DNA of 64,000 nt from an uncultured Nitrososphaerota archaeon (GTDB lineage Archaea; Thermoproteota; Nitrososphaeria; Nitrososphaerales; CADDZS01): NCBI GenBank assembly GCA_963799845.1, contig CAWCYI010000006.1, positions 320,001 through 384,000 on the forward strand, given 5' to 3'. Positions 2,522 through 22,115 of this stretch are shown in pieces; within the stretch, counting starts at the first letter, position 1, and the number at the start of each line of letters is the position of its first letter. The notes under the pieces are model-generated. The model was given only the letters and a program-made list of their open reading frames with translations. It was not told the origin of the DNA and did no database searches. The position numbers and the translations under genes were made by a program.

Positions 2522-3484
2522 TCAGCGTCTCAGCCGAGGATCCAAAATGTCCCGTATGCCATCGCCCAACAGATTGAAGCCTAACGCTACTATAACAATA
2601 GTAAGACCTGGGAACACTATGAGCCACGGTGCTATCGAAACAAAGTTTATCCCGTCACTGACTAGTTTCCCAAGTTCCGGGGTCAAAGGACTGGGAGCAA
2701 AACCAAGGAACATTAGTGAGGAAAATACCAGAATTACTCCTCCAATGTCAAGTGTAAGTTGAACCAGCACTGGGTATATTGAGTTGGGTAGAATGTGCAG
2801 AAATAGAACACGGAACCTGCTCGCTCCCGTTGCTCGCAGAGCTTCCGCGTAGGGCTTTTCCTTCTCGGTTAGTATCTGTGATCTAACTAGCCTGACGTAA
2901 AGAGGCCACCAAATTACGAGCACTGCAATGGTGAGCATCGTGAGGTTGCGTCCAAAGACCGTGACGAGTACTATCGCGAGTACAAGTCCCGGAAACGCGA
3001 AAAATATGTCAGTGACGCGGAGGATCGCTTCGTCGAGGATCCCACCAGCATAGGCAGCAACAGAACCCAAAACTATTCCAATTGCGAAGGCCGAAAACAC
3101 AATTGAAAAAGAGATTTGGAGATCTATTGGTAATCCCAGGATTATCATCGTCAGGACATCTCGACCGTACAGATCAGTACCAAGCAGGTGAACCGCAGTG
3201 CCTGGACACGGTGCAATGTTCACTAGATTCCAGTCGATTGCTGGATTATTCCAACATAGTTTCGCGGATAGGTCAGTAAACTTCCAAGCGTTAGGATTGA
3301 CCAAGTGTCCGGAGAAAACCGCCACAAAGATCGATGTGACAGCGATCACAGATCCTATTAGCACAAGCGGATTTTTCCTGGCGAGATGCAGGGCGTATTC
3401 GATTTCGGCTATTCTACCGGATCGCTGCGCCTTCCTTATGCTTTCTTTTAGTTCTTTATCAGATTCGGATATTTCTTCCAACAA
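2522..3484 (-). CDS. oppC: Peptide ABC transporter permease (OppC/DppC)
   Basis: HLLGTDLYGRD, EAA-like loop (YAEALRATGAS), C-terminal FNLLGDGIRDILDPR. Confidence 0.93.
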   Translation of the reverse strand: MLEEISESDKELKESIRKAQRSGRIAEIEYALHLARKNPLVLIGSVIAVTSIFVAVFSGHLVNPNAWKFTDLSAKLCWNNPAIDWNLVNIAPCPGTAVHLLGTDLYGRDVLTMIILGLPIDLQISFSIVFSAFAIGIVLGSVAAYAGGILDEAILRVTDIFFAFPGLVLAIVLVTVFGRNLTMLTIAVLVIWWPLYVRLVRSQILTEKEKPYAEALRATGASRFRVLFLHILPNSIYPVLVQLTLDIGGVILVFSSLMFLGFAPSPLTPELGKLVSDGINFVSIAPWLIVFPGLTIVIVALGFNLLGDGIRDILDPRLRR

Positions 3485-3507: not shown

Positions 3508-4626
3508 TCAATACCTTATCCTTGGATCCAAGAACGCATACAATACGTCAACTATCAAATTAGATAGTACAATAATCAATGCTGTGACAAGAGTATAGAG
3601 TTCCAAGAAATTAATGTCGACGTACAGCGACGCAGAAAGAGCTGCGACTCCAATGCCAGGCCAAGAAAATACATATTCAACCACAACGACTCCGCCTAGC
3701 AAGGATGCTAGGATAAGTCCGCTTATTGTTAGCGCTGGCAAAAGCGCATTCTTTAGGGCGTGACGGTAAATTACAGTCCTCTCAAGCAAGCCCTTAGATC
3801 GGGCAAGGAGAATGTAATCCTGTCTGAGACATTCCATCATACTTGACCTTACGATTCTCGTAAGCGCCCCGAGAGTCGAAAAGCTGAGGGTAATCGCGGG
3901 TAGAGCTAGCGCCATAAGTGAATCCCAAAAATAGCCTGGATTCCCCGAAATAATAGCATCGAATATAGGTGCTCCGGTAACGGTTTTGACAGTACCCACA
4001 TTCGAAAAGCAGAGTCCACAGGTGGTACTCAAAAGCCCGTTGGAAGGGAGCACCCCGGAATTGTTTACTCGAATATAAAGCACAAAAACAATTTGAAGAA
4101 TGAATGCCAGCCAAAAGACTGGCATGGAATATCCGGTCAGAGCGACGATTCTAGAAACGTGGTCCGGAAGTTTGTTGTTTTTTGTCGCCGAAATTATTCC
4201 CATGGGAAGAGCTATGACGACTGTCAGAATAGCACCTGCAATGGCGAGTTCCGCGGTTGCGGGAAAACGAGAGGAGAAAAGCCCCAACGTCGTCTGTCCC
4301 GATCCAATGTCTGGCAACAAGCTGTATCCCCAGTTTCCTTTTAGGGCGTTCGCAAGCCACGAAAAATATTGCGAATATAGGGGAACCACACAACCATGGG
4401 CCTGCTGACCAAATGCCGTCCAGGACGGGCAGGATCTAGTTGCTACTCCTAGTCCAACGGCCAGCCCAAGTTTCGTCGGATCATTCATTCTCGGTGTAAT
4501 ATAAGCCGCGAGGGCGAAAGTCGGAGGTAGAATCCCCCTCGTGAGGTAGAACACTATAACGCTGACTACTAGAAGGACGAATACCATCAAAATGAGTCTT
4601 CGAATGATGTATTCGTAGAGTTTCAT
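3508..4626 (-). CDS. oppB: Peptide ABC transporter permease (OppB/DppB)
   Basis: YIIRRL start, RFPATAELA, DYILLARSKGL, VFSWPGIG, YAFLDPRIRY. Confidence 0.93.
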   Translation of the reverse strand: MKLYEYIIRRLILMVFVLLVVSVIVFYLTRGILPPTFALAAYITPRMNDPTKLGLAVGLGVATRSCPSWTAFGQQAHGCVVPLYSQYFSWLANALKGNWGYSLLPDIGSGQTTLGLFSSRFPATAELAIAGAILTVVIALPMGIISATKNNKLPDHVSRIVALTGYSMPVFWLAFILQIVFVLYIRVNNSGVLPSNGLLSTTCGLCFSNVGTVKTVTGAPIFDAIISGNPGYFWDSLMALALPAITLSFSTLGALTRIVRSSMMECLRQDYILLARSKGLLERTVIYRHALKNALLPALTISGLILASLLGGVVVVEYVFSWPGIGVAALSASLYVDINFLELYTLVTALIIVLSNLIVDVLYAFLDPRIRY

Positions 4627-10373: not shown

Positions 10374-11323
10374 TTGCGAGCTCGAAAGGAATGTTCCCCA
10401 AGAAACAAGAAAAACAAGAATTATAGATCTTTCACATATCCACAGTCAGGATTTAATCTCGTGCAGAATCCAAAAGGGCACAAGCTCTATCTCTCCGGAA
10501 TAGGTGAAGTAAGATCATTCTTTCACAGGCCCATGCTGGGATGCGTGAACAGGCTCACAATCAAGCGAGACGCTGGCGAGTGGTATGCGGTGTTCTTGAC
10601 CGAGAAGAAAGACGCGAAACTGCAAAACATTCACGACATTAGAGACGGCAGGGTTAGGGCGTTGATGTGGGACTGGAAAAATTCGTCGTTCAGGACGACT
10701 CGAGCTCGAAGGAGTACCCAAGATTTCTACGCAAATCAGAGCACAAGATTAAGCATTTACAGAAACACATCTCGAGAAAGAGGAGTGGATCAAAGCGTTG
10801 GAGGAGACTTGCGTTTAGGTTGGCGAGATTGCATCTACACGTGAAAAGAGAGCGGGAGGACTATCAGAACAAGCTGGTTTCAACTCTCCTGAACAGAGAC
10901 ACCGATCTTTTGGTGTTGGAGAAACTGTCAATGGGTAGCATGCTGCAAAACCACTCTCTCGCGAAATCCCTGGCTGATGCATCCTTCGGAAGGTTTGCCG
11001 TAAAGTGCATCAACAAAGCAAAGATGCTTGGAAAGCGCGTCATGTTCGTGGATCCTTGGGGCACGAGTCAGTTCTGCTACAACTGTTTGGGTGGGTTCCG
11101 AAGGATCTTTCTCAAAGGGAGCATACCTGTCCCAAGTGCCCTGTCGATATACCTAGAGACCTCAATTCGGCTAGACTGATCAAATGGCTTGGAATCCAAA
11201 GAAGCCCGCCCTCGGACGGAGGGTCGTCACCCGCAGAGTCTTTGCCCCTACCATCTCTTCGGAGAATGGCAAGCAAGCGCGTTGAAGCGGGAAGCCAACA
11301 TCTTAGATGTTAGAGGACGTCAC
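10374..11323 (+). mobile_element. tnpB: 5'-truncated IS200/IS605-family element with frameshifted TnpB and intact right end
   Basis: YRSFTYPQSGF, RuvC-I GVDVGL, RuvC-II VLEKL, TSQFCYNC..CPKC, RDLNSA over three frames; right end GGAAGCC-AACATC-TTA-GATGTT-AGAGGACGTCAC ending at 11323. Confidence 0.88.
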
Positions 11324-11417: not shown

Positions 11418-12962
11418 TTACTGTTCGTCTTTCGAATTTTCGGAGGGAAGTTTTTCATCCGTAGCTGGCCGATTACTTTGAACAGATTCCTGTCCGTACA
11501 TCTTCAGCATCTCACGGATTACTTTGTCAGTTGTTTCTTTGTACTCTTCCTTATTCTTGATGCCTAGCAAATCAACAAATCCCTCTGCAACGAAGCTCAT
11601 GAGAGTAAGATCCCTATACATGCCAGGGATAGTCGCTAGCTGCGAAACATGCGGATGTGACAAATTCAGAATAATCGAATCCTGAGTTGTCATTACTGGT
11701 AGATCAGAGGGGCTCAGTTGAGCTTCTTTGATAGTTCCGAAGGCCGTTCTTGCTGCTCTTATCTCGCGGGGTAACCTGGGAGTTCCTGTAATTATTTTGA
11801 TCTGCCTTACCTTTTCCTTGCCCTTTGTGGGGAGTGCGACCTGAAATTGAGATGCAGCGAGCTGTTGCTCGTTCAAGACTTTGTATTCCGCAGGGAGTGA
11901 TATCTCTACAGTCGCAAGGGCTCTCTCCAAGACTTTTGCAAGTTTGTTCAGCGATTTCTGTACTAGTACATTGGAATAATGTGGAGTGTCCGGAATATCG
12001 TCAACGAGAGAATCAATCGCTTTCTTGAATTTGTGGTACATATCGTCTTCAACGTATGCACTTCTCCCCGTGACCAAAGTGAGATCTGTGTTGACAAATC
12101 CAGTAAGTGTCGGTCTCTTTGATATAACCTCGCGCTTCACCAATACTCCCCTGTTGTAAAATCGGATTGGTTTTCGATCTTCAACGCGATACGGATCAAC
12201 GAGGGTGATCGAGTATCCTTCTCCGGATCGTTCGTGCATAATTCCGGCCGGAAGCTCCGGGGCAATGGCTTCGTTCCCATTAACGAGAATCCTAAATTGC
12301 CAAGTCAGGAGAGGCGCGAAGGCAATGCTCACGTATTCGTAAAGTTTTGCGACGCTGAACGACTTGCGCAACTTTCGAAGATAGACCCTGGTACCATAAG
12401 TCAAGAACTCTCCCGCATCTTCAACCTCGATGGGCTCGCCTGTATCTATCGAACTTCTGATCAATTCGTCCGTCAGATGAACCTTCCACGTCCGCGGCCC
12501 TGGCCGAGAATAAACGTCAATCTCGCGAGCTATTTTGAACACTGAGAGGAAGCCGAGACCCTTTTCTCCTATGAAGAGCCTCCCGGAGTCGGAGGTTCCT
12601 TTATTCTGCTGTCTTTTCTCCGTCATTCCCTTCGTAAGAAAAGAGTTAAAGTCAGAAATGCCGTAGCCATCATCATCGATAAAACAACTATGTTCATTTT
12701 CGATTTCTATTCGAACTTTGTACGCATTGGCATCGTAACTGTTAGCGATTAGTTCTCGGAATGGATCATAGACGCTAGCATACGCTTTGTCCATAAGCTC
12801 GTCCATAATGCCTGAGCTAAGACGCACCCGAACGCTCTGTTTCTCAATAGGTTGAGTCTCATCGCTCGGTTTGCCAGCATATTTTGCCGCTTGCAACTTA
12901 TCTGACCGCTTCTCTAGCGGCTCATCCTTGTTGGTTGATATAGCGGGAAGGGTCGAATCCAA
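11418..12962 (-). CDS. GHKL (MORC/Hsp90/MutL-like, HATPase_c_3) ATPase
   Basis: RELIANSYDA (N-box), DDDGYGI (G1), IGEKGLGFLS (G2), GTRVYL; about 300 aa of C-terminal extension. Confidence 0.8.
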   Translation of the reverse strand: MDSTLPAISTNKDEPLEKRSDKLQAAKYAGKPSDETQPIEKQSVRVRLSSGIMDELMDKAYASVYDPFRELIANSYDANAYKVRIEIENEHSCFIDDDGYGISDFNSFLTKGMTEKRQQNKGTSDSGRLFIGEKGLGFLSVFKIAREIDVYSRPGPRTWKVHLTDELIRSSIDTGEPIEVEDAGEFLTYGTRVYLRKLRKSFSVAKLYEYVSIAFAPLLTWQFRILVNGNEAIAPELPAGIMHERSGEGYSITLVDPYRVEDRKPIRFYNRGVLVKREVISKRPTLTGFVNTDLTLVTGRSAYVEDDMYHKFKKAIDSLVDDIPDTPHYSNVLVQKSLNKLAKVLERALATVEISLPAEYKVLNEQQLAASQFQVALPTKGKEKVRQIKIITGTPRLPREIRAARTAFGTIKEAQLSPSDLPVMTTQDSIILNLSHPHVSQLATIPGMYRDLTLMSFVAEGFVDLLGIKNKEEYKETTDKVIREMLKMYGQESVQSNRPATDEKLPSENSKDEQ

Positions 12963-13111
12963 TTCACTCCAAGGTCAGTTTTTCTCGCAAAATTTGGCCT
13001 GAATAGCAGATCAGGCCAAAACCGAGTAAAAAACCCTACTGTGAAATTCGAAGAAAATAAGCGGCTCTAAGGTCGATCCACGCTTGGCCAGCTGGCATTC
13101 TCAGGCCTGCG

Positions 13112-15212
13112 TTAATCGCTCAGGGCATTGGCTAGTTCATGCTCGTTCGATGACGGCAGTTTGCATGCGAAATTTGAGCATACGAAGACTCGTGTCCTGC
13201 TACCTGACTCGTAAAGCCGATCTTGAACCATTGGAGAAATGCTCTCAATTTCCTTCTCTGCGAAAATTAAGACGGAGTTGGGGAGAAACTTGTTTCTAAT
13301 TACGGAAATCAAAGTCCTTGTTTCTGACGAGCCTTTCTTACCGGAGATGACAATTTCTTTCGGCTTATCGAGGAGAAATTCGAGCCCTACAAGCATTTCG
13401 GTAAAAGACGAGGGCTGTCGGGTTATCGGCTCCCAAAAAGCGAGGAAAGTATCTGCAGCGCAAGTTCTGAATTCTTCCTTTGTTGTGAACTCCGCCAGCC
13501 GAAGACAAACAAGCGCCGCTACCGAATTTCCAGAAGGCAGGGCGCCATCGAAACCATCCTTTGCCCTAACAATAAGATCAGCATCTCCTTCTCCAGTCTG
13601 GAAAAACCCTCCGGAGTTTTTATCATAGAAACTCGATATCATCGTCTTAGCTATCACCAGCGCCTTTTCCAGATATTTCGGATTAAATCCGGCTTCGTAG
13701 AGATCAATAAGCCCGTTTGCGAAAAAAGAGTAGTCCTCCAAGACAGACTTCGCCTTTGGATTCTCCGAGCCTGAATCTCCTCAACAGCCTGATGCCTTCG
13801 CCTGAATCACTTTCATTAAGATTTGCAAGCAAGAATTCGGCGCAGAAGACTGCCGAGGCAAGGTAACTCTCGTCGCCCAGAATCTGATACGCTTTGCTTA
13901 AGGCGGAGATCATCAGCCCGTTCCAGCCGGTCAGAATTTTGTCATCTGTGGGAGGCTTCGGCCGACGCATGCGGTGTTCCAATAGAACCTTCTTTGCCTT
14001 GGCGATCAGAGCACGTAGCTGGTCAGGATCAAGTCCGTCAGCGGTCGACTGATTCACCGGTCTGGAAGTTAGAATCGTTCTTCCTCCCTCGAAATTCCCA
14101 TCAGCCGTGACGCCGAAATATCTCGTGATCGCTGGGGACTCTTTCTCAGTGATCCCAGCTAACGAAAGCACCTTCGTCATTTCATCAAGAGTCCAAGAAT
14201 AATACGAACCCTCTCCTTCAGGGCTGTCGGCATCCTGCCCCGAATAAAATCCTCCCTCTTTGCTCCGCATTTCCCTCATCGCCCAATCAATGGTTTCCCT
14301 TACTATCCGGGAGTACTCCTCATTTCTTGTGATCAGGAATCCCTCGGAATACGAGATGATCAAAAGAGCGTTATCATAAAGCATCTTTTCAAAGTGCGGA
14401 ACAAGCCAGTATCTATCGGTGGAATATCGATGGAATCCGCCGCCAACCTGATCATAAATACCGCCCCTCATCATCGAGTCCAGAGTCTTCGAGACAGCGC
14501 TTAATGCTAGGGCAGAATTCTTCTCGTAGTAATAACGAGAGAGGAAAAAAAGGATCGATGGCGTCGGAAATTTCGGCGAATCGCCAAATCCGCCGTACCT
14601 TTCATCGAACGACCCCATAAGCGCCTCGTAGCACTCGTCGATAGGTGCCCAATTTAGCTTAGAATCTGGGCTTTTCTTAAAGTCGTACGACTCTCTGAGA
14701 GAACCTTTCATTTGGGTCGCCGAGTCTACAATTTTCTTCCTTTCTGATTTCCACGATTGAGAAATACTTCGTAGGACGTTCGAAAAGCTAGGCATCCCGT
14801 ATCGAGGAGTAGGAGGGAAGTAAGTCCCACCGTAAAAGGGGTCGAGGGAGGGCGTCAAGAATACGCTCATCGGCCAGCCGCCGGAACCGGTCATCGCAAC
14901 GACTGCCTTCATGTAAATCTCGTCAACGTCGGGCCTCTCCTCCCTGTCCACCTTGATGCTGACGAAATTCTCATTGAGCAATTTTGCGATTTCGGGATCT
15001 TCGAGTGACTCCCTTCGAAACACATGGCACCAGTGGCATGAAGAATAACCTATGCTGAGAAAGATAGGTTTGTTCTCGTGTTTAGCCTTTTCAAACGCTT
15101 CTTTGCCCCAGGGATACCAATCAACTGGGTTATAGGCGTGTTCTAGGAGATAGGGACTTTTCTCATTTATGAGACGGTTAGCTTTCTTATTGGATTCATT
15201 ACTCTGTGTCAT
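13112..15212 (-). CDS. yyaL: Thioredoxin-domain protein YyaL/SPATA20 family (one indel near 13745)
   Basis: [81 protein letters not shown]; ATG at 15212 overlaps the upstream TGA. Confidence 0.92.
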
Positions 15213-16087
15213 TGATCGCAACCCGTTTTCTGCAACCATCTATACACTGTCCGAGAAGATCTTTTAGAAGCCAAAGCGATCTCATCATTACTATGACCTC
15301 GCTCTTTCATCTTTCGTGCAGATAAGATCATCCCATCAAAGATCTGCTTTTTCAATTGTCTTCTTTCCTGTCTGAAAGTGTAGGCGACCTCGGCCTCTTT
15401 GACAAACCTGTCACGTTCCACGCGAATCTCGTTTCGAAATGATCTGTAGACTGGCGCGGCTGAGCTCCAGTGCAGGTTACTCATTGCTTCAGCAAGCCTA
15501 GAGGCATTGACTTTTTCTTCATGCCTTAACCGAAGTTCAGACAATATTTTGATTGCTTCCAAGCCGCTCGCAGAAAGTAGGTAATAATCCTTCTTCCACT
15601 GATCGACTACCTTACAGATTCCTACGCTCATACCTCTCTTACCGAGTCCTTGTTTAAACAATTCCAGAATTGCTTTGTTTCTGTTTGAAAGTCCGAAAAC
15701 TACGCGGGTTTTTCCGCGCGCATCCCGAACTGCTATGTGACCTTCAGCGTCCGTGAATCCTGAAAGTGCGGCGTAGAACAACGAATCCTTCTCTAAATCT
15801 TCTCGACACAGGTGTTCTCGCCGGTTCAGAAGGTAGGAATAAGAATCATCAAGATCGCACACTATTCGCCAGCAATAGCCTGATCTAGTTCGGCATGGAT
15901 AGATAATCGGATGGCAAGCCTTTTCGAATAAACCATTCACTAATAGGAGCTGAGCGCGATGGGTAGTACTGACCGATACCCTAATTTTTCTGCCATGCCG
16001 ATTTGTCCCGAGATCGCCGAGAGCAAAAAATGTAATATATTTTTTGTCGATGCTATCTGCAGTTTTTACCTCGGCTTCGCTTGACAT
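15209..16087 (-). CDS. Free-standing double-motif LAGLIDADG homing endonuclease-like protein with C-terminal HTH
   Basis: Motif 1 (degenerate) [11 protein letters not shown], motif 2 [14 protein letters not shown]-terminal [25 protein letters not shown]; likely start MSSE at 16087. Confidence 0.8.
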
Positions 16088-16267
16088 TCTGGAACACATT
16101 CGTTGGTTGAGAATTCTGTCCTATTCTTCGATTGCTTCACAGCTAAAAATCCAATAGCGGACAGAAAATTAACTACTAGGTTGATTTGAAGCGAGTATTC
16201 TGATTGAAAAAGTCCATGAGATGGCCTCATTAGCGATCTATCTGGAATACAACTTTTTCCCAAGTAT

Positions 16268-16462
16268 GCACCAGTGGCATGACTAGTATCCAATGCTCAG
16301 AAAGATCGGCTTGTTTTCGCGTTTTGCCTTTTCGAATGCCTCCTTGCCCCAGGGAAACCACTCGACGGGATTGTAGGCGTGTTGCTGAAGATAAGGACTC
16401 TTTTCGTTGATTAAATGGTTGGGCTTTGATTTCTCGGCCGGAGAATGCTTTTCTTCTGACAG
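16268..16462 (-). pseudogene. yyaL: Orphan 5' fragment of yyaL ending at CHWC, with in-frame TAG
   Basis: Manual translation [52 protein letters not shown], then unrelated sequence; not in the ORF track. Confidence 0.92.
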
Positions 16463-16672
16463 ATGGATAATACCTTCTCTAAAATAAGCCAGAAGGAGAA
16501 TTCGTGTTTTAATTCTTGTGTCAGAAAAAACAGTGCAAAGATTGGATAATAATCTGCCAAAGACTCCAAACAGTGTAGCATATTTTTGGTCCGTCTATTG
16601 AGACCTTAAATTCTAGTTCCCATTGATTCATAAAGAAAAAAAATCGGTTTTGTCAAGTCTTCGTCAATTCTC

Positions 16673-17290
16673 CTAGATTTTGTTGCTGTCAAAATTCGTC
16701 AGCTGTCCCAAGTCATTCGGTTGCAACCCCTTTTTGTTAATTTTCTCTAGCGAAAAAACAGACAGGTATTGAAAAGTGTCGAGCCCTAGTTCAACGAGTC
16801 TATCTTCGGTTGTTTTCCCTATAAAGAAATTTGGCTTTCTCCATGAGGACTCTATATTTTTGACCGTTGCAATGATTGACTGATTAAGTTCATTCTCTCC
16901 CAAAAGATTGTGGGCGTATTGGTTTCGTATTCTCTGGAAACATCGAATGTTCTTAACGAGCTTGGAATCAGACTCTAGAATATCCAAAGCTTCTAGGATT
17001 TTCAGCTTATTTTCAAAAGAACCGATATTTTCATCATCGATTATGAGTTTTGGATTTGGAAAAGAGTGCTTGATCATTTCATTAATCCAATATTCTATGT
17101 ATAGATGGATTAGGAGTGCCTTCGATCTCAAATCAGAGACACGGTTAATGTCAGCATTAAATCTACTGAAGATACCTGAAAAAGTCGAGCTCTTGTGTTT
17201 CTTCAGCGGTTTGGCTTTCGCATTTCCTTTAGACAAAATATTCCAAACTCCCCTTGTTTTTGGGTTTCTTTGCTTCGTTAACTTTGGCAT
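16673..17290 (-). CDS. HEPN-domain (MtlR-like) protein
   Basis: HLYIE helix, GSFENKLKILEALD, and Rx4H motif RNQYAH. Confidence 0.6.
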   Translation of the reverse strand: MPKLTKQRNPKTRGVWNILSKGNAKAKPLKKHKSSTFSGIFSRFNADINRVSDLRSKALLIHLYIEYWINEMIKHSFPNPKLIIDDENIGSFENKLKILEALDILESDSKLVKNIRCFQRIRNQYAHNLLGENELNQSIIATVKNIESSWRKPNFFIGKTTEDRLVELGLDTFQYLSVFSLEKINKKGLQPNDLGQLTNFDSNKI

Positions 17291-17414
17291 TCTGAATGAA
17301 TGTTATCCACTTGACTGACTCCTAAGGCTTGCTGCAAGGCTGTCCCTTCGCCTCGCGACTCCAGTCAGTGTTGGAGTCGCTACTTGTTCGTTCGCAAAAT
17401 GAGGTGTAGGAGAA

Positions 17415-18539
17415 ATGATGAGAAATAAGAGTAAGAAGATTATTCGAAGAAGTATGAGTAGCAATTGCGTAATCGCAGGAATTGACCTGGGCGATAGTAG
17501 CAGCCTTGCAACCGTTCTCTCTCCAGTCGGAGAGATCGCAGACAGGTTCTCCTTCCAGATGGATGAAGCGGGGTACGCCCTGTTCTCAGACAGAATTCCA
17601 AGGGATGCGAGGTTAGCTTTTGAAGCTACGAGCTCGGCATATCCGTTCTCAAGAATGCTCAAGGAACTAGGATACCACGACATAACTGTAGCTCATCCTA
17701 CTGAACTTGCCTGGATCGTCAGATCAAAGAAAAAGAATGATAGAGCTGATAGCTTAAAGATAGCCAAGCTCCATCTAGCGGGTCTGTTGCCCGAATCTCA
17801 TCTTTTGGCTCAAGAGGAGCAGATAGAAAGAGACCTCTTGATTCAGAGGGTAAAGCTCGGATCAGAGATAGGTAAAATCAAGAGCAGGATCATAAGCTAT
17901 CTCAAGAGGGAAGGAGTGTTCGAATCTCTCCCGAAGAGCAAAGATAACTTCTCTGCTAGAAGGAGGGTTGCAATCGCCTCAATGAAATTCAACGATGACA
18001 GAGACCTCGTGCTGAAAACCATGGTTGAGAGACTCGAATTCATGGAGAAGCAGTGCGAGCCGTTGGAGCAGAGGATAATGAAGAACGCGAAGGACAACAA
18101 ATACGTCAGGATGATAATGTCTATTCCTGGCATAGATTACTACCTCGCTTCGCTATATTCTTCGTACATCGGAGATCCACATCGCTTTCCGTCTTTTGAT
18201 CACGTCGCAAGCTTCCTCGGGATAATTCCAGAGAGCAAGGATAGTGCAAACGTCAGGAGGAGAGGAAGAATGTCCAAGGACGGACCTTCCATTGCGAGAT
18301 GGGCTCTGGGCATAATGACCGACACGGTGCTGCTCTACAATCCGAATATCAAGGTATACTACAACGGCGTCAAGCAGAGGACGGGTCGCGGGAGCTACGC
18401 CCATGTGCTAGTGATGAAGAAGTTAGCTCGCATGATCCATCACATGATGATTACGGAGGAGAACTACAAGTGGGAGAACGAGGCGCTAACAGAAGCAAAG
18501 ATCTCAAGACTCGATGCCGCTGGAGGTGAATCAGCCTAG
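17415..18539 (+). CDS. IS110-family DEDD recombinase/transposase
   Basis: GIDLG, FEAT, KNDRADS (DEDD); SIPGI; FLGIIPESKDSA; MSKDG; KKLARMI. Confidence 0.93.
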   Translation: MMRNKSKKIIRRSMSSNCVIAGIDLGDSSSLATVLSPVGEIADRFSFQMDEAGYALFSDRIPRDARLAFEATSSAYPFSRMLKELGYHDITVAHPTELAWIVRSKKKNDRADSLKIAKLHLAGLLPESHLLAQEEQIERDLLIQRVKLGSEIGKIKSRIISYLKREGVFESLPKSKDNFSARRRVAIASMKFNDDRDLVLKTMVERLEFMEKQCEPLEQRIMKNAKDNKYVRMIMSIPGIDYYLASLYSSYIGDPHRFPSFDHVASFLGIIPESKDSANVRRRGRMSKDGPSIARWALGIMTDTVLLYNPNIKVYYNGVKQRTGRGSYAHVLVMKKLARMIHHMMITEENYKWENEALTEAKISRLDAAGGESA

Positions 18540-18775
18540 CGGAACAATTGGGATGGAGTTGCAGGCCGAACCATTTGGAGATAATTGAGCCATAGAGCTT
18601 TTCCATTTGAGTGTGGCGCCCCGCCTCCGTTAAATCGTCAGAATACGCCTAGCCTTGTACTAGAGCGTTTATCGAGTGTATGCGGAAAAGGTGAGGGCAG
18701 GTCTGTTCAGCTAGCCCTAGTCCAAACGCTAGCTTGATAAGCGGGATGAACGATCTCAGAGATAGAGCAGGTTAG
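18540..18775 (+). ncRNA. Candidate bridge/seek RNA of the IS110 element
   Basis: Non-coding, with hairpins (ACGC-CTAG/CTAG-AGCGT; AGCTAGC/GCTAGCT inside GTTCA/TGAAC) and short matches to the element ends. Confidence 0.55.
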
Positions 18776-19043
18776 GCGAAGGGACAGCCCTAAGCCTTAG
18801 ATGAGTGTTATCTCCTTTGATCTCAATTCCGCATTTCTCCCGAACGCGAATATCCAATGTTTATGAATCCGATTGAGACATCTTTGCGATTGATATTTGT
18901 AAGATTCCCAATATTAAGGCCATAGCTCGAAAGCTCCATTCCTGAACGGAAAATTTGAGCTGACGAAAATTTACACGGAGAAATTTGTCTCGAATTGACG
19001 AAAACTTGACAGAACCAAAAAATCTCTGCGTTCGCACACGAGG

Positions 19044-19155
19044 AGCTGTTTTCTGAGCGAAGAGCTACGTTCAAGCTCTGTAAGCTCAGAAGAGCTTGAA
19101 ACGAGCTGAACGGAGCTCAGAGAGCTCAGAACGAATTGAACGGAGGCACAAAGCT
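19044..19155. repeat. Phased AGCT array / dispersed repeat copy 1
   Basis: AGCT at 19063, 19074, 19083, 19093, 19104, 19114 and 19123; internal inverted repeat TTCAAGCTCT/AGAGCTTGAA. Confidence 0.85.
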
Positions 19156-19530
19156 GCTATAGAGGGTTACTCGACAATTGTCGAGTTGATCATTTCGTAT
19201 TGGATTTTCGAGTTTTCGAGGATGTTCTGGAAATTCACCCCTCGATTTACCAGATCATTGCTCGCGAACTATACATCAGAGCTGAATTTTCTTTGGGTTT
19301 CTGCGCGCGTGAGTAATTTTTGGCCGAATAGCTCGGTTTCAAGCTATTAAATAGAGAGGGGCCCCCTAAGGGGAGTCCTGCAACCGTGCGTGTGTACTCG
19401 TTGGATTGCTTTCTATCAGCTTGTTAAAAGCTCATCCGGCAATTCTGAGCTTGAAATGCCAAGTTATTCCACGCAATGTAATTCATAAGGAAAAAGAGAA
19501 ATTGACTCATATCAGGAAGCAAGATGGGAC

Positions 19531-19902
19531 ATGGATCTCTCCCCTGATAGCAAATCTCGAAACTTTAGATCTGTAATATGCTACAGAATTTCTAACATTA
19601 TGGAAAGAGCCGTGGTGGAAGAGATATGTTCTCGAAAAGGAGTCACCCTACTCTACACACAGGATAGTTCAGAATTGCTTCGGTTTGGCGATGGATACCT
19701 AGTCATCTGCGATCTTGCAAGTCTGAAGAAAGATGATCTTGCCGCTCTGGTCAAGTCAGCAAGAACGAAGAATTGTCGAGTTCTGGGGAGCTACCCTCAT
19801 GTCTCCAGAAAAATGGGTGAAACGGCGCTATCTGAAGGTGTAGATTACGTTGTGCCAAGATCTGCATTCAAAATAAAGTTAGAGCAGATATTGACGAACT
19901 AG
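19531..19902 (+). CDS. Small receiver-domain-like protein
   Basis: LVICDL...VLGSYPHV...A..EGVDYVVPRSAF pattern of CheY-like small proteins; start uncertain. Confidence 0.5.
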   Translation: MDLSPDSKSRNFRSVICYRISNIMERAVVEEICSRKGVTLLYTQDSSELLRFGDGYLVICDLASLKKDDLAALVKSARTKNCRVLGSYPHVSRKMGETALSEGVDYVVPRSAFKIKLEQILTN

Positions 19903-20171
19903 GTCTTTGAGGCAACCTTGAGTCTTTCCATATTTCTGATCTCCCTGGCTTTCAAAATCGGACCGATGGTATCAAGCCAGGAATCTCCTTCTTTTATCCT
20001 CCATTCGTTCAGATACTCTTGAACGAGATTGTCAGAAGTTGCTAGCCCAATCGGGAGCTTGTAAAAGAACGGGCAGTCAAACATCAAGAGTACAACCTTA
20101 TCGCCGTTTTCGTCCAATCCTGGAACGCGCTCATCTTCCGCTGCGTTGCAGAACGGGCATCTGATGGTCAA
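19899..20171 (-). CDS. Hypothetical protein with N-terminal CPFC
   Basis: 90-aa ORF with CPFC and DCPF motifs; convergent stop overlap. Confidence 0.6.
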   Translation of the reverse strand: MTIRCPFCNAAEDERVPGLDENGDKVVLLMFDCPFFYKLPIGLATSDNLVQEYLNEWRIKEGDSWLDTIGPILKAREIRNMERLKVASKT

Positions 20172-20275
20172 GTGCGATACGAGTTATATTGACAATAGCT
20201 GAAAAATATTGTGCAATCTAATCGATTGCGAAGTTGAACCTTCTTCACCATAAATAGCTGCCAAAATTATCGTCG

Positions 20276-22115
20276 ATGGATATCCAATTGCTGAGATATT
20301 CTGTTTCCATGCCGAGCCCAAATACGCATTATTTTGAAGTGAGCATATTCGTCAGCGATTTCAAGAAAAAAGTCCCTGACCCTAGCAAGTTGCATTTAGT
20401 CATGCCCGTCTGGACTCCGGGCTCTTATCTTGTCAGAGAGTTCTCGAAAAACGTTCTGGATCTTGATGCTAGATTGGTCGATGTCAACAAAAAGGCAAGA
20501 TCATATAAGGTAAGTAAGAATGAATGGGTAGTTGAAACCAATGGTTCTGAGGAAGTAGAAATCAATTACCGAGTGTACGCCTTTGAACTTTCGGTAAACA
20601 CTAGCTATCTCGATGACAAGCACGGGATCATCAACGGTGCAAGCATATTCATGTACATTCAAGGCATGGAGAACATCGAGGGAGTTCTAGAAGTCCATCA
20701 GTTCGAGGAATGGAAAAAAATCTCGACCGGTCTCCAAGAGATTGAGAACTCGGATTCGAAGTCCTCCCAGTTTCTAGTTCCGAACTATGACAAACTGGTC
20801 GATTCCCCGATCGAGATAGGGAATCAAAATCTCCACTCGTTTACCCTCAATGGAACCAAGTACGAAGTATCAATATTCAGCATAAGCAAGTTCGATGAAG
20901 TGGCATTCGTTTCAGATATCAGGAAAATCGTCGAAGCAACGACGAAAGTATTTTCGGAAGTTCCCTACGACAGGTACGTCTTCATCGTCGATTTTACCGC
21001 TGACAATTACGGAGGCCTGGAGCACCTCAACAGCACTTACTGCCTCGCGTCGATTTTCAGACTGGAACCTCCTCAAGAGTATAGACAGTCTGCTGTCGTT
21101 GTTTTCGCACGAATTTTTCCACGCGTGGAACGTCAAGAGGATGCGCCCCAAAGGCCTGGGGCCCTTCGATTACACGAAGGAGACATACACCAAATCACTC
21201 TGGATCGCTGAAGGAATAACGAGTTACTACGACGACCTGCTTATCAGACGGGCCGGGATATTCAGCGTTGGAGAGTACCTTGATGCCTTCAGCTCGAACA
21301 TCAGTCAGATGAAGAGTCTCCCAGGTTCCAGGTGGCAGAGCGCACAGGAAGCGAGCTTTGACACTTGGATCAAACATTACAGGCAAAACGAAAATTCTCC
21401 GAACGTCTCATTCTCATATTACACTCAGGGCGCTGTCATCGGCTGGATGCTTGACATGGAAATCAGGAGGAGCACCGGCTCTTCGAGGACTCTGGATGAC
21501 GCGATGAGAAAGACCTACGCCGAGACGTACTTCAATGAGAACAGAGGGTTCTCAGACGAGGAGTTCGAACGAATTTGCGAGGAAACATCCGGATCTAGCG
21601 CGGTCGCGGCCATCTTCGAGCAGAGAGTCGAGGGAAGGACTGATGTTGATTTCGACAGATATCTTGCTTATGCCGGGTTGAAGCTGGTACCGAAAAAAGA
21701 GGAAAAAGTGAGTGGTTTTCTGGGAGTCAGGCTGAAGGAGGAAACAGGGCGTGTGACGGTTATAACGGTTCTTTCTTCCTCCCCGGCAGAGGTTGGAGGC
21801 CTCGCGCCCTCAGATGAGATCATAGGGGCAAATCATATTCGTATGGATAGAGCCAGACTCTCCTTCTATTTGTCAAACAGCAAACCAGGGGATCTTATCA
21901 TCCTGTCTGTAGCGAGATTGGGTTCCATCTTTCAAGTAGAGTCGCGACTGACCGAAAAACCGGTTCTGGAATTCAGGTTAACAAAAAATGATCAAGCAAG
22001 TCCAGAGGAAAAACAGCTTTTCGAAAATTGGTTGGGTGAGAGCTGGTCTGAAGAAATCAAATTTGAGGATTACAGGCCGTCCCCGGTAAGGACGAATGTT
22101 TTGGATTATGTTTGA
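20276..22115 (+). CDS. M61 glycyl aminopeptidase with PDZ domain (indel near 21085)
   Basis: MPVWTPGSYL, GGLEH, SHEFFHAWN, LWIAEGITSYY, C-terminal PDZ (SSPAEVGGL). Confidence 0.92.

Follow-up and report, generated by a model that had tools for sequence, protein, structure and literature searches.

How can a homing endonuclease gene come to lie in front of a conserved protein-coding gene and leave that gene whole, if no intron or intein is involved? This question is raised by a locus in a 64,000-nucleotide stretch of DNA from an uncultured Nitrososphaerota archaeon (contig CAWCYI010000006.1, positions 320,001 to 384,000; hereafter the window), in which two 5' ends of the gene yyaL flank a LAGLIDADG nuclease gene. 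Read along the minus strand, the order is an A/T-rich stretch, a truncated yyaL 5' end (the orphan), a spacer, the nuclease open reading frame (ORF) and a full yyaL (the resident gene). A first-pass annotation of the sequence had proposed a minimal mobile cassette that enters yyaL at the CHWC codons, strands the native 5' end and restores the gene with a carried one. Of this interpretation, the replacement-end layout without splicing or integrase was upheld, but not an orphan-leaving cassette bounded by CHWC. The locus is instead probably the result of intronless homing in which a nuclease from a lineage specific for yyaL carried a replacement 5' end along and displaced the native one.

Identification of the orphan rests on a match to yyaL with E = 5e-29, which excludes chance resemblance; its lesions are one stop and zero indels. 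Orphan and resident 5' end are identical at 120 of 153 nucleotides in the final 51 codons. The earlier count of 44 equal residues out of 51, with 23 of the 44 specified by other codons, was reproduced exactly, and so was the 15-mer at the breakpoint (16282-16268 identical to 15041-15027). The overlap of the nuclease stop codon TGA with the yyaL start codon as ATGA lies at 15212-15209, where it had been reported; the start of the resident yyaL at 15212 was picked by alignment with relatives. Unrelated DNA does separate the orphan from the nuclease gene, but its length is 168 nt (16100-16267) and not about 180 nt, and what had been taken for a TATA-like box is merely the A/T-rich stretch. The insert as a whole comprises 1241 bp with the nuclease as the only ORF of note. 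The spacer had no other match in its own genome and none in the loci of relatives. At the DNA level, neither the spacer nor the region upstream of the orphan was similar to relatives, and no similarity was detected among three nuclease upstream regions. The spacer could hold the nuclease gene's own promoter.

The structure of the assembly was checked with Logan contigs from four public soil-metagenome runs (one study), which were aligned to positions 13000-17400. A contig from run X1 (record 6) covers 15942-16775 with zero differences, i.e. the 5' end of the nuclease gene, the spacer, the orphan including its TAG, and the upstream region, and a further X1 contig (13782-15277) spans the yyaL body through CHWC into the 3' end of the nuclease gene. 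Contigs from runs X2 (record 14; 16122-16329) and X3 (16081-16260) also showed no differences. The TAG in the orphan, for which confirmation with reads had been called for, is present in short-read contigs of two runs. In the window, the downstream yyaL, which had been described as complete, is split into the frames 13704-15239 and 13112-13741. Because a short-read contig from X1 that lacks one base at 13747 restores a single yyaL frame of 699 codons, reading Glu-Ala-Val-Leu-Glu-Asp-Tyr as in relatives, the frameshift is an assembly error, and the resident yyaL is whole once this base is removed. A 'joint' from 14957 to 16389 in an X1 contig has just 23 letters on one side; it was read as another organism's yyaL and not as an empty site. 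That the locus itself is an assembly chimera or represents collapsed strain variation appears extremely improbable: the assembly does contain at least one indel error, at 13747, and the genome is 86.7% complete with 4.9% contamination, but contigs from three runs (X1, X2 and X3) cover the junctions without a difference.

Next, the descent of the two yyaL 5' ends was considered. Synonymous divergence (pS) between the orphan and the resident 5' end was 0.88 and nonsynonymous divergence (pN) 0.057, orthologues in the taxonomic family of the window's genome having pS values between 0.65 and 1.17. As the first-pass annotation had argued from codon usage, these values speak against a recent tandem duplication; they identify the two ends, as far as can be read from the sequences, as alleles from different lineages that diverged under purifying selection. 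The divergence would have arisen while both ends belonged to working genes. When an IS110-family insertion sequence (IS) element and the repeat interrupted by the insertion that contains it are set aside, the orphan and the 143 nt upstream of it are positioned facing orf114, in the same way as yyaL in G006 and G002, two genomes without the homing endonuclease gene (HEG). By position, the orphan would hence be the native end, and its pS to four congeners is 0.75-0.81 versus 0.85-1.09 for the resident end. Identity tables do not separate the two ends. An attempt at separate trees for orphan, carried end and gene body was given up as unresolvable, residues 10-130 being 74-86% identical in the 120 best database proteins, bacteria included.

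The nuclease was assigned to its family on the basis of profile search, motifs and fold. With the 296-amino-acid protein alone, Pfam reported LAGLIDADG_3 and the helix-turn-helix (HTH) family HTH_23, both below threshold. A search of 1.8 billion representatives yielded 420 relatives at E <= 1e-3; among 50 relatives, LAGLIDADG_3 matched 41 and HTH_23 matched 26. A profile of 50 relatives searched against the PDB found I-AniI (9.2e-9) as well as the bI3 maturase, I-HjeMI, relatives of I-OnuI, and PI-PfuI. The AlphaFold2 model (predicted local distance difference test, pLDDT, 95.1) consists of two alpha-beta-beta-alpha-beta-beta units followed by helices. Foldseek related it to I-OnuI, I-DmoI, I-Tsp061I and I-AniI with a probability of 1.00 and gave TM-scores on the target of 0.62-0.66 for I-DmoI, I-Tsp061I and I-OnuI; WhiA (3hyi) was also listed. 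Motif 1 ends with Gly28-Asp29 and motif 2 reads Asp117-Ala-Glu119-Gly120, the modelled motif helices ending at residues 29 and 119. Asp29 was found in 42 of 42 aligned residues, and position 119 is occupied by Glu in 43 and by Asp in 7 of 50 sequences. Motif and fold thus bear out the LAGLIDADG identity of the protein and, because the catalytic acids are conserved, it gives the impression of an active enzyme and not of a domesticated DNA-binding protein.

The claims that neither splicing nor an integrase is involved held as well. No Rfam family was detected up to E = 1 in 14800-16800, including any intron model; a group I or other intron was rejected on this lack of a match, and the nuclease gene has a start and a stop of its own as a separate ORF. 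The insert encodes no tyrosine or serine recombinase. An integrase-borne integrative element was therefore rejected as a candidate, the nearby IS110 element having its own ends (17307-18818).

Members of the nuclease family occur in 67 of 401 Nitrososphaerales genomes with one to six copies each, some of them with stops or present as fragments. Nearly all of these genomes fall in one other taxonomic family (63/97 genomes; referred to as the second family), and the window's genome has one copy. Of the 11 genomes in the window's own family with a readable yyaL 5' end, three (that of the window, G005 and G011) have the nuclease gene before yyaL, its 3' end overlapping the yyaL start by 4, 56 and 29 nt, respectively. 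In the empty sites of G007 and G009, 56 nt separate a zinc-ribbon gene from yyaL. The second family contributes seven more copies directly before yyaL and an eighth, decayed one in G218; a yyaL-linked nuclease was counted there at 8 of 64 yyaL loci. The G218 copy (G218:C41:14803-15552; L152) contains two TGA, two TAG and one TAA codon and lies before a yyaL that reads Leu-Val-Met after CHWC; it would be a late stage of a cycle of gain, decay and loss. In a tree of 93 copies, from which the G005 nuclease was left out by a filter, nine yyaL-linked copies formed an exclusive clade (support 1.0), and two copies linked to a reductase gene formed another (0.998). Sporadic occurrence, faithfulness to a target and decay together make up what appears to be the pattern of a site-specific selfish gene.

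Altogether, 11 loci link the nuclease to yyaL, and the window alone keeps an orphan. An orphan-leaving cassette could not be maintained as the standing form, given that the ten other yyaL-linked nucleases of the same clade lack an orphan; these loci typically have a plain free-standing homing endonuclease gene before yyaL. No remnants of nuclease or orphan were detected below E 0.04 in the gaps of HEG-less or orphan-less loci. A scan of genome contigs returned only G005 and G011 again, one of viral contigs returned nothing, and one of metagenome contigs returned two near-identical copies of the G005 locus.

These data also bear on the idea that the LAGLIDADG-HTH protein is a domesticated, vertically inherited regulator of yyaL resembling WhiA, with the orphan as an unrelated leftover. 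WhiA, which combines a LAGLIDADG fold with an HTH, is indeed among the structures listed by Foldseek, and 11 genomes show close coupling of the gene to yyaL. However, WhiA has a degenerate LAGLIDADG fold and is not known to possess the catalytic acids, and these acids are conserved in all aligned members of the nuclease family. Furthermore, the sporadic occurrence (3/11 and 8/64 yyaL loci), the multi-copy nature of a family with decayed copies such as that of G218 with its five stops before yyaL, and the existence of sister lineages at many other genes make a WhiA-like regulator very unlikely.

Alleles of yyaL linked to the nuclease differ from unlinked ones immediately after CHWC. In the window's family, the linked alleles continue with His-Val-Phe, His-Gln-Phe and His-Val-Leu, and six of the eight unlinked alleles with His-Val-Met. 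For the second family, 76 yyaL 5' regions were collected together with about 1.3 kb of upstream sequence, of which 68 were parsed and four set aside because of short upstream sequence. The first residue after CHWC was not His in 7 of 8 linked versus 10 of 56 unlinked alleles (one-sided Fisher p = 2.1e-4); a second parse gave 7/8 versus 9/51. In both families taken together, His-x-Met was kept in 0 of 11 linked versus 30 of 64 unlinked alleles (p = 0.002), although both p-values overstate the association by counting related genomes as independent. The first codon of the variable patch coincides with the point at which the orphan ends. Since HEG-linked alleles are altered right after CHWC, the target is placed at the end of the orphan, which would mark the break, and very likely spans the CHWC codons. 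To this extent, the proposal of a CHWC target agrees with the alleles; its other part, a foreign tract bounded by CHWC on the 3' side, does not, because the immunity-like changes lie just 3' of CHWC.

Two side observations concern the same region. Around CHWC, the resident yyaL (15018-15056) and the G007 allele (L013) differ at only one of 39 nt, the two genes being about 75% identical at the DNA level elsewhere. In G010 (L014), an 815-nt gap (686-1501) between the zinc-ribbon gene and yyaL contains neither nuclease nor orf114 nor a recognisable remnant, and the yyaL of this genome is of the Phe type after CHWC.

The following course of events could have led to the present locus. The nuclease would cut a nuclease-free yyaL at the codons for CHWC/His-Val-Met, and the end on the side of the gene body would invade a nuclease-bearing donor allele. 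Repair would then copy the intervening 5' part of yyaL, the nuclease gene and some upstream DNA, with a tract reaching somewhat past the cut, and the copied allele, altered just after CHWC, would presumably be uncuttable. A recipient whose upstream region matches that of the donor would acquire a clean insertion, and ten yyaL loci look like this. In the window, repair would have been clean on the gene-body side only. The upstream region of the recipient (orf114, perhaps already accompanied by the repeat) was presumably unlike that of the donor, and the left end may have been joined illegitimately, such that the recipient's promoter and first 65 codons were fused to donor DNA at a point 168 nt before the nuclease gene. 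The orphan formed in this way would have gained its TAG after stranding. With a 5' end supplied by the incoming DNA, yyaL would have stayed whole. Translation of yyaL is probably coupled to that of the nuclease gene via the ATGA overlap, and transcription might start from the old promoter, a promoter in the spacer, or both.

The fragment-nuclease-full gene layout, for which a search at other genes had been suggested, was found elsewhere. For this, 102 loci of the nuclease family, 98 of which have long enough flanks, were scanned for similarity between the flanks of the nuclease gene. A direct flank duplication at E <= 1e-6 was present in three of the 98, i.e. the window, G356 (L030) and G155 (L055). 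In the latter two genomes, the mirror arrangement is seen at the 3' end of the gene for 3-hydroxy-3-methylglutaryl coenzyme A (HMG-CoA) reductase: downstream of the full reductase gene comes a nuclease gene in convergent orientation, overlapping the reductase stop, and after it an orphan reductase C-terminus. The orphans correspond to the last 41-43 codons, are located 42 and 41 nt past the nuclease start, and both begin at the Asn after His-Met-Lys-Leu-His-Ala-Arg. At the breakpoint, the resident reductases read Ser-Met-Ala and Asn-Leu-Ala, and 15 of 17 nuclease-free relatives have Asn-Ile/Val-Ala. The nucleases of G356 and G155 are 47% identical to each other and 27% identical to the window's enzyme. 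Between the two orphans, pS is 0.89 and pN 0.24, for which reason they appear to have been functional ends until recently; the resident ends are more divergent (pN 0.41). The reductase orphans hence have the appearance of normal native ends that were displaced in the recent past, and the resident ends that of mobile ones. In G356, the nearest relatives of the gene core match the orphan (0.74, 0.69) more closely than the resident end (0.57, 0.55).

The reductase loci are relevant for two further explanations. According to the first, spacer, nuclease and replacement end form an obligate home-and-rescue cassette which always enters at the cut and strands the native end, the donor's orphan serving as homology arm, and loci without an orphan have lost it by later deletion. 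The two reductase cases share the breakpoint codon and the distance of 42/41 nt despite only 47% identity of their nucleases, a coincidence hard to obtain via random end-joining; their orphans look recently functional, and the layout in the window fits equally well. On the other hand, 10 of 11 yyaL-linked loci are without orphan or remnant. In G011, the gap beside the neighbour gene measures 65 nt versus 56 nt in the empty site of a congener, so that deletion of an orphan would have to have been near-exact. Moreover, with immunity-like changes beyond CHWC, the transferred tract differs from the cassette originally envisaged. An obligate cassette is therefore regarded as unlikely for the locus, but in view of the identical reductase junctions the orphan-bearing form may itself propagate there, with the donor orphan as second homology arm.

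The second explanation dispenses with the nuclease altogether. One-sided homology combined with an illegitimate joint would account for the layout without cleavage, be it by homology-facilitated illegitimate recombination of a foreign nuclease gene and yyaL 5' end or by unequal recombination of alleles in a polyploid cell, and the CHWC breakpoint would reflect chance microhomology. IS and repeat insertions are abundant right beside the locus, and the yyaL example is a single one. Yet the breakpoint coincides with the codon boundary where HEG-linked alleles are altered, two reductase genomes break at the same codon, and the ends of the IS110 element (17307-18818) exclude the duplicated part. 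A duplication independent of the nuclease is thus given little probability, and homing with a carried replacement end is preferred.

Several points weigh against this preferred explanation. An orphan is found at one of the 11 yyaL-linked loci and at 3 of the 98 scanned loci across the nuclease family. The closest nuclease (P0002) is just 55% identical. At the variable first 14 residues, the nearest relative, G004, is more similar to the resident yyaL than to the orphan, and a mosaic test of the resident gene (maximum chi-square versus pairs of relatives) was weak, its p values lying between 0.004 and 0.6 according to the pair compared; the test was dropped as proof of a foreign tract, the conserved N-terminal domain being without signal. 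For the reductase of G155, similarity to the nearest relative, G117, is higher for the resident end (0.73) than for the orphan (0.56). G117 may have kept a carried end after loss of the nuclease, which is a guess. In addition to the non-independence of genomes mentioned above, 32 of the 56 unlinked second-family alleles also depart from His-x-Met, as expected if the nuclease was lost and immune alleles stayed. Finally, the short-read runs possibly stem from the assembly's own samples, in which case they may test the assembler and not the biology.

Other members of the nuclease family were inspected for their position relative to neighbouring genes. Nuclease 3' ends abut neighbour genes in 53 of 102 loci, a count based on crude ORF calls with no control and given for description only. 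Many copies are convergent to one ORF of 142 amino acids and overlap or abut its stop (L069, L072, L073, L082, L084, L086, L091-L095, L104 and L109); from the ORF listing of L006, which is the same site as L091, this ORF was read as ferredoxin-like. Genes of about 203, 372 and 585 amino acids recur beside nuclease copies likewise, and all four look like further lineage-specific targets. Inverted flank similarities of 35-39 amino acids, with one arm adjoining the nuclease gene, were noted at L124 (1453-1569 vs 2987-3103) and L126 (2349-2453 vs 4204-4308). They could be rearranged orphans or chance paralogues; inverted flank matches also occur at L120-L122. An orphan would not fit in G020, where the next gene is 36 nt away. 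Tentatively, this undescribed large LAGLIDADG-HTH family might consist of splicing-free elements that cut a gene and replace its end. Each lineage would be tuned to a motif near one gene end (CHWC in yyaL, HAR in HMG-CoA reductase, others elsewhere) and carry an immune copy of that end, a kept orphan would serve as homology arm, and the elements would move between genera, exchanging gene ends in the process.

Coordinates of the locus and of its surroundings are compiled in Table 1. In the window's family, the conserved gene order is M61 peptidase, zinc-ribbon gene, (orf114), yyaL. Loose contig ends at 17307 in three runs indicate further contexts of the IS110 element. The M61 peptidase gene is in two frames (21085-21097) and the zinc-ribbon gene contains a TAA (19914-20186), which may be further assembly errors or real lesions. 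Directly downstream of yyaL, positions 11418-12962 on the minus strand encode a 514-amino-acid protein with a match to HATPase_c_3 (E 1.6e-12). Overlapping ORFs in three frames at 10667-11313 look, by eye, like a broken TnpB-type gene with a zinc-finger-like C-terminal motif.

Table 1. Features of the yyaL locus and neighbouring DNA (positions refer to the window).
Feature	Positions	Strand	Basis or remark
Resident complete yyaL, DUF255/thioredoxin-like domain and body	13112-15212	-	ORFs; Pfam Thioredox_DsbH, E 1.4e-76
Resident (presumed replacement) yyaL 5' end, start codon to CHWC codons, adjoining the nuclease gene	15027-15212	-	Codon comparison with orphan
Three codons 3' of CHWC, His-Val-Phe; putative target/immunity patch	15018-15026	-	Alignments and survey of 76 further loci
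Free-standing double-motif LAGLIDADG gene with C-terminal helix-turn-helix, 296 amino acids	15209-16099	-
Spacer between orphan and nuclease gene, 168 nt	16100-16267	-	Sequence
Orphan yyaL 5' fragment, 65 codons, ending exactly after SCHWC	16268-16462	-	Frame and yyaL match
TAG stop in orphan, two codons before CHWC	16283-16285	-	Frame; contigs of two runs
Region upstream of orphan, presumed native yyaL promoter region facing orf114	16463-16605	-	Position; bounds from repeat map
Left piece of repeat resembling a miniature inverted-repeat transposable element (MITE), split by later insertion	16606-16642	.	Adjoins the piece from 19017 onward in other copies
Later insertion in repeat, about 2.4 kb: 205-amino-acid ORF and IS110-family element	16643-19016	.
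205-amino-acid ORF between split repeat and IS110 element	16673-17290	-	No Pfam match
IS110-family element, transposase 17415-18539	17307-18818	.	100% identical copy on contig C4
Right piece of MITE-like repeat	19017-19438	.	Dozens of genome copies; full repeat about 460 nt
orf114 homologue, conserved divergent yyaL neighbour	19564-19896	+	tblastn 39% identity, E 1.6e-23
Zinc-ribbon-like gene, conserved neighbour, internal TAA in assembly	19914-20186	-
M61-type peptidase gene, conserved neighbour, two frames in assembly	20291-21287	+

Comparable systems are known from organelles and phages. In fungal mitochondria, mobile ORFs (mORFs) bring in a foreign end for the C-terminal part of a gene, and the native end stays behind (PMC3630166); gene hybrids of this type are named there for atp6 of Allomyces macrogynus and for atp6, atp9, cox2 and nad3 of Glomus (PMC3630166, citing Paquin et al. 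1994). As in these mORFs, an endonuclease ORF comes with a copy of one end of the host gene, a displaced native end remains as a duplicate, the two ends are divergent and splicing is unneeded; the reductase loci of G356 and G155 also have the 3'-end geometry of the fungal elements. Unlike mORFs, the present loci are on an archaeal chromosome and not in an organelle, and in the window it is a 5' end with its promoter that is displaced. Moreover, the nuclease is not in phase with the host gene but encoded by a separate ORF, which overlaps at ATGA in the window and lies on the opposite strand at the reductase gene. The window's nuclease also carries an HTH, and most copies of its family are without an orphan. 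In Tremella mitochondria, elements with N-terminal duplications of host genes occur, for which partial gene replacement by foreign sequence was proposed (PMC7315562). Both there and here a homologous host gene segment accompanies the mobile element. The Tremella elements are organellar, are annotated as introns and gave mixed outcomes in reverse transcription PCR, whereas the window matches no intron model and has a layout that does not need splicing.

The free-standing nucleases of T4-like phages (seg, mob) spread together with their flanks by intronless homing, according to the accessible parts of PMC2790892 and PMC2988022. As with seg and mob, the nuclease gene is intergenic, would cut a neighbouring conserved gene in genomes lacking it and be copied with its flanks; 10 of the 11 yyaL-linked loci look so. 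The phage enzymes are GIY-YIG or HNH proteins, in contrast to the LAGLIDADG enzyme on a cellular archaeal chromosome described here, and a displaced gene end is foreign to the phage picture. The best structural matches, I-DmoI and I-Tsp061I, are archaeal, intron-encoded and, like the window's enzyme, monomeric with two motifs. I-DmoI also has Gly-Asp in motif 1 and Glu in motif 2 (residue numbers from PDB entry titles), its motif acids having a catalytic role. However, I-DmoI and I-Tsp061I sit in introns of ribosomal RNA genes, whereas the window's enzyme is free-standing, has an extra C-terminal HTH and a protein-coding target. With WhiA it has in common a LAGLIDADG-like fold followed by an HTH; unlike WhiA, the family has kept its catalytic acids and is sporadic and multi-copy. 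The literature searched, which lacked most subscription journals, yielded no description, for archaea, of such layouts or of this nuclease family. The kind of element is already known from fungal mitochondria; new here are the archaeal chromosome, the LAGLIDADG-HTH enzyme, the replacement of a 5' end, and the series of target and immune alleles.

The finding implies that homing endonucleases can colonise archaeal protein-coding genes without intron or intein, by way of a replacement gene end. As far as the literature was searched, this route is otherwise described only for fungal mitochondria. The orphan end provides a dated-looking snapshot of one invasion and marks the probable cut, and the natural pairs of target and immune alleles around CHWC make the specificity of the enzyme directly testable. 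For phylogeny and annotation it matters that conserved genes of these archaea, such as yyaL and that for HMG-CoA reductase, can have ends of foreign origin, and the nuclease family, with its presence in 67 of 401 genomes and its several target genes, represents a pool of meganuclease scaffolds with guessable target genes. If the family does consist of elements that cut and replace gene ends, they would be the first cellular, non-organelle counterpart of mORFs and would continually supply soil archaea with mosaic housekeeping genes.

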